A DNA stretch of 64,000 nucleotides from Escherichia coli (GCF_017348835.2 NZ_CP071375.1), one strand, 5' to 3'; positions 26,391 through 28,466 are shown, counted from the stretch's first letter. The notes: generated from the letters alone by a model not told the origin. Numbers and translations are program-made.

Positions 26391-26671
26391 TTCACCACAT
26401 CACTTTTTGTCGCTGTTTGGCGAGATAATTCAACGGTGTCAGGCCGTAAAACGCCTTAAAAACAGAGATAAAGTACGACGTGCTGCTATAGCCACATAAT
26501 TGCGCCACCTGAGTGATATTTTTGTTATCCATCAATAACATCTGTACGGCGTAACGCATACGACACTCTGTGACAATCTGGCTATAGCTGGTATTTTCGT
26601 TTTTTAATTTCTTTTTGAGCAGGCTGGGGCTTAAACATAGCGAACTGGCGACAATTCGCAGATTCCAGTAA
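26391..26671 (-). pseudogene. envY: envY 3' fragment (AraC-family HTH domain), separated from the 5' part by IS629
   Basis: Minus-strand translation ...NITQVAQLCGYSSTSYFISVFKAFYGLTPLNYLAKQRQKVMW-stop; continues in frame with 27982-28466 if the IS and one TAA copy are removed. Confidence 0.8.
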
Positions 26672-26725
26672 TGAACCGCCCCGGAAATCCTGGAGACTAA
26701 ACTCCCTGAGAAAGAGGTAAACAGG

Positions 26726-27052
26726 ATGACTAAAAATACTCGTTTTTCCCCCGAAGTCCGTCAGCGGGCGATTCGTATGGTTCTGGAAAGTCAGGATGAA
26801 TATGACTCACAGTGGGCGGCAATTTGTTCCATTGCCCCAAAGATTGGCTGTACGCCGGAGACTCTGCGTGTCTGGGTTCGCCAGCATGAGCGGGATACCG
26901 GGAGTGGTGATGGTGGACTCACCACCGCTGAACGTCAGCGTCTGAAAGAGCTGGAACGTGAAAATCGTGAACTGCGCCGCAGTAACGATATCCTTCGCCA
27001 GGCTTCCGCTTATTTTGCGAAGGCGGAGTTCGACCGCCTCTGGAAAAAATAA
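26726..27052 (+). CDS. IS3-family transposase OrfA (HTH part)
   Basis: 108 aa; ends in an A-run (ggaaaaaataatg) where OrfB starts in the -1 frame. Confidence 0.9.
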
Positions 27053-27939
27053 TGCCACTGCTGGATAAGCTGCGTGAGCAGTACGGGGTCGGACCGGTAT
27101 GCAGCGAACTGCATATTGCCCCGTCAACGTATTACCATTGTCAGCAACAGCGACATCATCCGGATAAACGCAGTGCCCGTGCGCAGCACGATGACTGGCT
27201 GAAGAAAGAGATACAGCGCGTATACGATGAAAATCACCAGGTATACGGTGTGCGTAAAGTCTGGCGTCAGTTGTTACGGGAAGGTATCAGAGTGGCCAGA
27301 TGCACTGTGGCACGTCTCATGGCAGTTATGGGACTTGCCGGTGTTCTCCGGGGTAAAAAGGTCCGCACTACCGTCAGCCGGAAAGCCGTTGCCGCATGCG
27401 ACCGCGTAAACCGTCAGTTCGTGGCAGAACGTCCAGACCAGTTGTGGGTGGCTGATTTTACCTGGGTAAGCACATGGCAGGGCTTCGTTTATGTGGCGTT
27501 CATCATTGATGTGTTCGCCGGATACATCGTGGGATGGCAGGTCTCATCATCCATGGAAACAACATTCGTGCTGGATGCACTGGAGCAGGCGTTGTGGGCC
27601 CGTCGGCCGTCCGGCACAATCCATCACAGTGATAAAGGTTCTCAGTATGTATCGCTGGCCTACACGCAGCGGCTTAAGGAAGCCGGATTACTGGCATCAA
27701 CAGGGAGTACTGGCGACTCGTATGACAACGCGATGGCGGAGAGCATCAATGGTCTTTACAAAGCGGAGGTAATACACCGTAAGAGCTGGAAAAACCGGAC
27801 AGAAGTGGAACTGGCCACACTAACGTGGGTGGACTGGTATAACAATCGACGATTGCTGGAAAGGCTGGGCCATATTCCTCCGGCAGAAGCAGAAAAAGCT
27901 TATTATGCTTCCATCGGAAATAATGATCTGGCAGCCTGA
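27052..27939 (+). CDS. IS3-family transposase OrfB (DDE catalytic domain)
   Basis: 295 aa, IS629 OrfB-like as remembered; -1 frame relative to OrfA. Confidence 0.9.
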   Translation: MPLLDKLREQYGVGPVCSELHIAPSTYYHCQQQRHHPDKRSARAQHDDWLKKEIQRVYDENHQVYGVRKVWRQLLREGIRVARCTVARLMAVMGLAGVLRGKKVRTTVSRKAVAACDRVNRQFVAERPDQLWVADFTWVSTWQGFVYVAFIIDVFAGYIVGWQVSSSMETTFVLDALEQALWARRPSGTIHHSDKGSQYVSLAYTQRLKEAGLLASTGSTGDSYDNAMAESINGLYKAEVIHRKSWKNRTEVELATLTWVDWYNNRRLLERLGHIPPAEAEKAYYASIGNNDLAA

Positions 27940-27981
27940 GTTCACAGATAAAACACTCTCCAGGAAACCCGGGGCGGTTCA

Positions 27982-28466
27982 TAATGCTGAATATCGCTTT
28001 GAATAATGCGGCAGACGCTGTCGCGGACGCTGCTGCGTAAGATATACATCAGTAGGGCAATAAACCGCGATTGCTCAAGAAAGTTAGACAATACGGTAAA
28101 AAGCAATGCGCGCGTCAACTCCGCTTCGCAGGGTTTGCTGGGTTGCTGCTTGCTGTGGTTGGCGGCTAGCCGGAACACTTCCGGTGTACGGCTATGACAA
28201 GCGATAACCGGGGTAGCCAGCCGCGACCAGGGCTTTACACAGGTTAAGTTCTTATTTAAAAACAACAGATAATCGTTGATGATGTTACGGTTGATGTGGG
28301 TGATTAATACGTGATTTAACGTTGAGAGTTCAATAACGTTATTGTTGCACGCGAAGGCGGCCAGGTAGTTTTTCGGAAGGGTAAACGTAGCATGGTTATT
28401 GACGCTTACCTCTACCTCTTTTTCGGTCAGGATCACCACGCAAGGTTCACTGCTGCTCAATTGCAT
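27982..28466 (-). pseudogene. envY: envY 5' fragment (N-terminal ~162 codons) fused to 12 IS-derived codons
   Basis: Minus-strand ORF begins MQLSSSEPCVVILTEKEV and runs into the IS right end before a stop. Confidence 0.8.

Follow-up and report, generated by a model that had tools for sequence, protein, structure and literature searches.

A complete IS629-type element flanked by a 3-bp target duplication splits envY in Escherichia coli PE164

We have analyzed a stretch of 64,000 nucleotides of Escherichia coli DNA (the window), in which the gene for the AraC-family regulator EnvY is interrupted by an insertion sequence (IS). The envY gene occupies positions 26392–28466 on the minus strand. It is split at codons His161/Tyr162 by an IS3-family element, the transposase of which is encoded on the plus strand, i.e., in the orientation opposite to that of envY. 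K-12 shares the gene order ompT-envY-ybcH-nfrA-nfrB. Coordinates of the individual features are collected in Table 1.

Table 1. Features at and around the interrupted envY gene, with positions counted from the first nucleotide of the window.
Feature	Position	Strand	Basis
attR core, 45-nt copy of the tRNA-Arg (argU) 3′ end, at the right end of the lambdoid prophage	26302..26346	+	exact 45-nt match
envY 3′ fragment, third base of codon 161 through the stop, including the left TAA	26392..26671	-	ORFs, excision
Left target-duplication copy, TAA	26669..26671	.	single TAA in the F2_81 empty site
Complete IS629-type IS (IS3 family), 1310 bp, TG...CA ends	26672..27981	+	sequence, repeats, identity to named copies
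IRL, left terminal inverted repeat	26672..26696	+	repeat pair, end alignment
orfA, 108 aa, HTH_Tnp_1 domain	26726..27052	+	ORF list; Pfam, residues 1–87 of the fused protein; NCBIfam IS3 transposase N-terminal match
ALIL pseudoknot (Rfam RF01497), frameshift-stimulating RNA of the IS group	27007..27123	+	cmscan
A6 run, putative -1 slippage site just before the orfA stop	27044..27049	+	sequence GGAAAAAATAATG; site inferred
orfB, 295 aa from ATG, rve integrase core	27052..27939	+	ORF list, NCBIfam, Pfam
Truncated envY ORF as present, 174 aa	27942..28466	-	ORF list
IRR, right terminal inverted repeat	27957..27981	+	repeat pair, end alignment
Right target-duplication copy, TAA	27982..27984	.	single TAA in the F2_81 empty site
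envY 5′ fragment, codons 1–160 (start at 28466) plus two bases of codon 161	27985..28466	-	

The IS lies beside the end of a prophage, as had been noted in the preliminary description of this DNA. The attR core ends 325 bp from the element. It was located by an exact match to a sequence that we take to be the 3′ end of argU; a search with ARAGORN found no whole tRNA in the window. To the left of attR is a full lambdoid prophage in the position of DLP12, running from terminase through tail fibers and carrying lom and ompT. The prophage fills the window from position 1 to 26346 and extends past the window start, which falls inside the large terminase gene. In K-12 envY is found at the same site by the DLP12/argU attR and in the same gene order; the gene is whole there, whereas here it is split. 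The K-12 prophage is a remnant that ends 91 bp before envY and has appY next to ompT, in contrast to the full-length prophage of the window, where appY is not next to ompT. In place of the K-12 appY are genes for an alpha/beta hydrolase (23255–24739) and a class I SAM-dependent methyltransferase (22041–22709). The remaining sequence, cus through ent/fep, belongs to the core genome and is unremarkable. Between entD and hokE there is an IS4-like transposase gene of the IS421 family, annotated as frameshifted (49589–50700, minus strand), and this second IS in the window is apparently decayed.

The ends of the element interrupting envY could be read directly from the sequence. It is exactly 1310 bp in length, starting TGAACCGCCCCGG and ending CCGGGGCGGTTCA, and a repeat search combined with alignment of the ends reveals imperfect terminal inverted repeats of about 25 nt that are 88% complementary, with termini TGAACC...GGTTCA. 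The repeat pair was scored as 26 nt, a length that includes one flanking base at each side. The element is bordered by an exact 3-bp duplication of the sequence TAA. At the junctions the repeat has the appearance of TAATG, because the target continues with TG, the dinucleotide with which the IS also begins; only 3 bp are truly duplicated. Two further copies have identical ends, one adjoining ralR on the PE164 chromosome and the other in the O157 strain EC4115, and each is flanked by a 3-bp duplication of AAC (AAC-IS-AAC). Target duplications of 3–4 bp have been reported for IS629 (PMC3271280). The boundaries, length, inverted ends and exact TAA duplication proposed in the preliminary description are therefore all confirmed.

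The coding content is that of an IS3-family transposase. The orfB frame is -1 relative to orfA, and is open from 26986. Its product matches the NCBIfam model for IS3 transposase NF033516 with a score of 311.8 bits (cutoff 160), and the fused OrfAB protein contains the Pfam domain rve (8.8e-25), together with HTH_21, rve_3 and HTH_Tnp_1. A shift of -1 at the A6 run would generate an uninterrupted protein of 404 aa, and it is likely that this run is the slippage site from which the OrfAB transposase is produced. The overlapping ALIL pseudoknot was detected by cmscan over the full length of the model (1–117), with a score of 120.3 bits compared to a gathering score of 50 (E = 4.8e-32). The joined transposase coding sequence (26726–27939) carries the term "programmed frameshift" in the PGAP annotation, which also marks the ALIL pseudoknot. 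Judged by its sequence, this copy of the IS appears to be intact, retaining the inverted repeats, orfA and orfB, the A6 run, the ALIL pseudoknot and the rve domain.

IS629 is a member of the IS3 family, with isoforms IS1203 and IS3411, that is found in Shigella and in EHEC/aEPEC E. coli; in ISfinder practice an isoform has at least 95% nucleotide identity to the reference IS. PGAP gives the element of the window only the generic name "IS3 family transposase". It has the features of the IS3 family and IS629, i.e., a length of ~1.3 kb, imperfect inverted repeats, overlapping orfA and orfB, an rve transposase and a 3-bp target duplication. The resemblance to IS629 extends to the length of 1310 bp, the TGAACCGCCCCGG ends, the 0/-1 arrangement of orfA and orfB, and the A-run with ALIL. 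Over 1310/1310 bp there is 99.5% identity to the copy deposited as IS629 in the Stx phage BP-4795 (AJ556162), and copies that are 99.9% identical occur in O103:H2, many STEC, aEPEC and other E. coli genomes. Alignment with a copy in O157:H7 EC4115, labeled "IS1203 family" by PGAP, gave 95.9% identity (1256/1310, no gaps, 54 differences). Three subtypes of IS629 that are 4–5% apart have been described (PMC3271280), so that the element belongs to a different published subtype from that of EC4115, while lying within the published subtype spread. The earlier designation of the element as IS629-type is thus justified on its sequence, the name itself resting on depositor annotation and the literature. 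Chance is not an issue, since the match is full length and gap-free to a multicopy element.

Matches to the IS are found at about 32 places on the PE164 chromosome, and the range for the chromosomes of PE164 and strain F2_81 is 26–32 places each. The window contains no second copy. A copy that is 100% identical lies between ralR and rcbA in a Rac-like prophage (2399810–2401119 of the PE164 record), flanked by the duplicated AAC. There is an overlap of 49 bp between its left end and the 3′ end of ralR as annotated. This copy may be the donor or a sibling of that in envY.

What has the insertion done to envY? Excision in silico of the IS together with one copy of TAA leaves 762 nt, encoding 253 aa and a stop codon, with no frameshift and no internal stop. 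This is the in-frame rejoining to a protein of ~253 aa that had been anticipated, with one correction to its limits. The stop codon of envY begins at 26392, and the range beginning at 26391 given previously is one base too long, leaving 763 nt after excision. The rejoined protein is identical to K-12 EnvY (b0566) at 252/253 positions, the only change being R111K. No EnvY-specific NCBIfam model scored above its cutoff, and the top match was to GadX (166.9 bits, cutoff 500). Pfam domains in the rejoined protein comprise HTH_AraC at residues 155–194 and 208–244, and HTH_18 at 169–245, corresponding to two AraC-type helix-turn-helix motifs. Sequence identity, K-12 synteny and the pair of motifs all uphold the identification of the gene as the AraC-family regulator envY.

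The duplicated TAA straddles two codons, comprising the third base of His161 and the first and second bases of Tyr162, and it is the right copy that completes codon 161 and provides the first two bases of codon 162. The reading frame as it stands encodes 162 residues of EnvY followed by 12 residues encoded by the IS (EPPRVSWRVFYL). The DNA-binding domain extends over residues 155–245 and is split at residue 162. The break therefore falls 7 residues into the domain, of which the truncated product keeps 8 residues. The 3′ fragment contains nearly all of the AraC-type DNA-binding domain, without a promoter or start of its own. RefSeq/PGAP annotates the two parts as envY pseudogenes, "missing N-terminus" at 26392–26673 and "missing C-terminus" at 27981–28466. 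With the break positioned just inside the DNA-binding domain, the 174-aa product is in all likelihood inactive and the strain EnvY null, in keeping with the inactivation of envY claimed originally. Loss of DNA binding would be expected to result in loss of EnvY function.

We have compared the locus with other complete E. coli genomes, using queries of 400 nt spanning each IS/envY boundary. Both junctions were found in just one genome of the 5,426 searched, that of PE164 itself (NZ_CP114128.1, a 100% match to the window), a porcine isolate from diarrhea and blood, Nanjing. A 3-kb probe from nfrA/nfrB was 100% identical only in PE164 and in F2_81, isolated from a pig in Australia; the next genome was 99.3% identical. 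At this locus, therefore, neither of these two strains has a sequenced relative closer than the other one. The empty site is provided by F2_81. Its envY is intact, and the target reads ...GATTCCAGTAATGCTGAATATC... (also written as ...CCAGTAATGCTG...), with a single TAA. The rejoined envY is identical to that of F2_81 over 762/762 nt, and alignment of 3 kb of flanking sequence gave 3000/3000 identical positions on both sides of the element.

An 82,910-bp plasmid is common to F2_81 and F2_18C, a published atypical EPEC strain of ST302 O108:H9, and we treat the two as one strain. The chromosome of F2_18C is reported to contain 23 copies of "IS1203 (IS629 variant)", by which several ORFs are disrupted (PMC6985150). 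The clone, the type of IS and the outcome of simple disruption (in dprA, agaA-like, gudP-like, ynfC and ipaH-like genes) are shared with the present case (PMC6985150). In F2_18C/F2_81, by contrast, envY is intact, and the insertion in envY is private to PE164.

The conclusion that emerges is that a copy of an IS629-type element almost certainly transposed into envY after PE164 and F2_81 had separated, with EnvY expected to be null as a result. The perfect target duplication, the collinear and identical flanks, the empty site, the private junctions and the identical sister copy together indicate a single, simple transposition. In the proposed sequence of events, OrfAB transposase made by -1 frameshifting would have inserted the element into envY in the PE164 lineage, duplicating the 3-bp target TAA and leaving the rest of the locus unchanged. 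Transposition probably occurred by a copy-out/paste-in process via a circular intermediate, assumed here from the outline of the mechanism for the IS3 family (10.1101/2023.06.07.543989). The promoter-proximal part of envY would then specify the N-terminal domain with 12 junk residues attached, and both helix-turn-helix motifs would be stranded without a start. A simple and probably recent event had been suggested on first reading, and this is sustained by the junctions in one of 5,426 genomes, the empty site with identical flanks in F2_81 and the identical copy of the IS elsewhere. The recency is best understood as relative, based on comparison of two closely related complete genomes, and further ST302 isolates, unsampled or sequenced only as drafts, could also carry the insertion. 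The suggestion in the preliminary description that the IS forms a substrate for rearrangement holds as a generic possibility, given the ~32 IS-matching places on the chromosome, but no rearrangement has occurred here.

Other explanations of the locus must be weighed against this. Repeats are the usual cause of misassembly, and with some 32 IS-matching places on the chromosome and the junctions present in one genome only, a multicopy IS might have been wrongly placed in envY of PE164. However, the junctions are clean, and the 3 bp perfectly duplicated around the element occur once at the empty site, which is the signature of real transposition rather than of a collapsed repeat. The flanks are moreover collinear with, and identical to, those of F2_81, and the record is a finished, revised assembly. 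The target duplication in particular makes misassembly very unlikely, and we attach next to no probability to it. A different kind of proposal accepts the insertion as real, and makes it a reversible switch in which precise excision of the IS by the IS-excision enhancer (IEE) restores envY. IS629 is among the IS3-family elements whose simple excision the enhancer promotes (PMC9397093), and with the target duplication intact and the flanks undamaged, precise excision would restore wild-type envY. On the other side, we found no match to iee on the chromosomes of PE164 or F2_81 by megablast. The query was a chimera of 3 kb of PE164 nfrA and the central 1.2 kb of Sakai iee (ECs_1305), of which only the nfrA place was found; very divergent homologs are outside the reach of this search. 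Where IEE is lacking, precise excision seldom occurs spontaneously (PMC9397093). IEE-mediated reversibility of the envY insertion was rejected, iee being undetected on the PE164 chromosome, and we consider that there is only a slight chance of the switch being real. The nearest parallel is IS600 in lacZ of STEC O121:H19, likewise an IS3-family element in a non-essential gene, where exact excision restores function (PMC9397093). That insertion is reversible by IEE, whereas for PE164, with no iee detected on the chromosome, reversibility is not expected. As a separate observation, IS629-type matches are present at all of these places on the two chromosomes, yet the iee query gave no match there by megablast. 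Amplification of IS629 has been linked with the presence of IEE in the literature.

Alternatively, the insertion might have been selected, if loss of EnvY or read-out transcription from the IS altered the envelope (OmpC/OmpF, ompT) to the benefit of a pig-pathogenic clone. There is some biological basis for this. EnvY has been ascribed a part in the thermoregulation of OmpC/OmpF (Lundrigan and Earhart, 1984, as cited in PMC8544407), and envY is induced 9.3-fold at 37°C (PMC8544407). In UPEC isolates, higher expression of ompT was correlated with the presence of envY upstream of it (PMC6854850), and envY mutations arose in anaerobically evolved lines (PMC5419217). There is also a promoter-like pair of hexamers across the right junction of the IS (27978–28007, plus strand), with the sequence TTCATA-18 nt-AATAAT, lying partly in the IS end and partly in envY DNA. 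Against selection, the insertion was seen once among 5,426 genomes, and nothing points to convergence. A match to envY was found in 4,170 of the 5,426 complete genomes (up to 71 of these being partial matches), so that the gene is missing from ~23% and is evidently dispensable. The promoter-like sites are no more frequent than expected by chance (3 found compared to 3.9 expected), and the insertion leaves the 792 bp upstream of ompT unaltered. Taken together these considerations make selection improbable. One specific form of it, in which an altered temperature-dependent envelope changes the susceptibility to host peptides, phages or antibiotics, is slightly more improbable still, and a variant in which the 174-aa N-terminal fragment is still partly active as a regulator is weaker than the parent proposal. 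An outward or hybrid junction promoter was considered separately and discarded: with sites not above chance, it would direct transcription antisense into the envY 5′ fragment, and ybcH, nfrA and nfrB are on the other strand.

The IS629-type transposition into envY is an ordinary, strain-specific insertion, for which RefSeq already annotates both envY fragments and the IS. It introduces no new element, mechanism or gene, and carries little weight beyond strain bookkeeping. Nevertheless, it is a clean textbook case of transposition by an element of this type, for which a sister genome supplies the empty site as a natural control. The insertion could be used to mark the lineage of ST302 isolates resembling PE164, and the prediction that PE164 is an envY null is relevant to work on porin thermoregulation or OmpT in this strain.

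A difference between the two genomes is seen within the prophage. The methyltransferase gene described above is intact in PE164 and annotated as frameshifted in F2_81, and the accession of the adjacent tail-fiber assembly protein differs between the strains. Outside the 3-kb flanks used for comparison, PE164 and F2_81 are thus not the same in sequence throughout.
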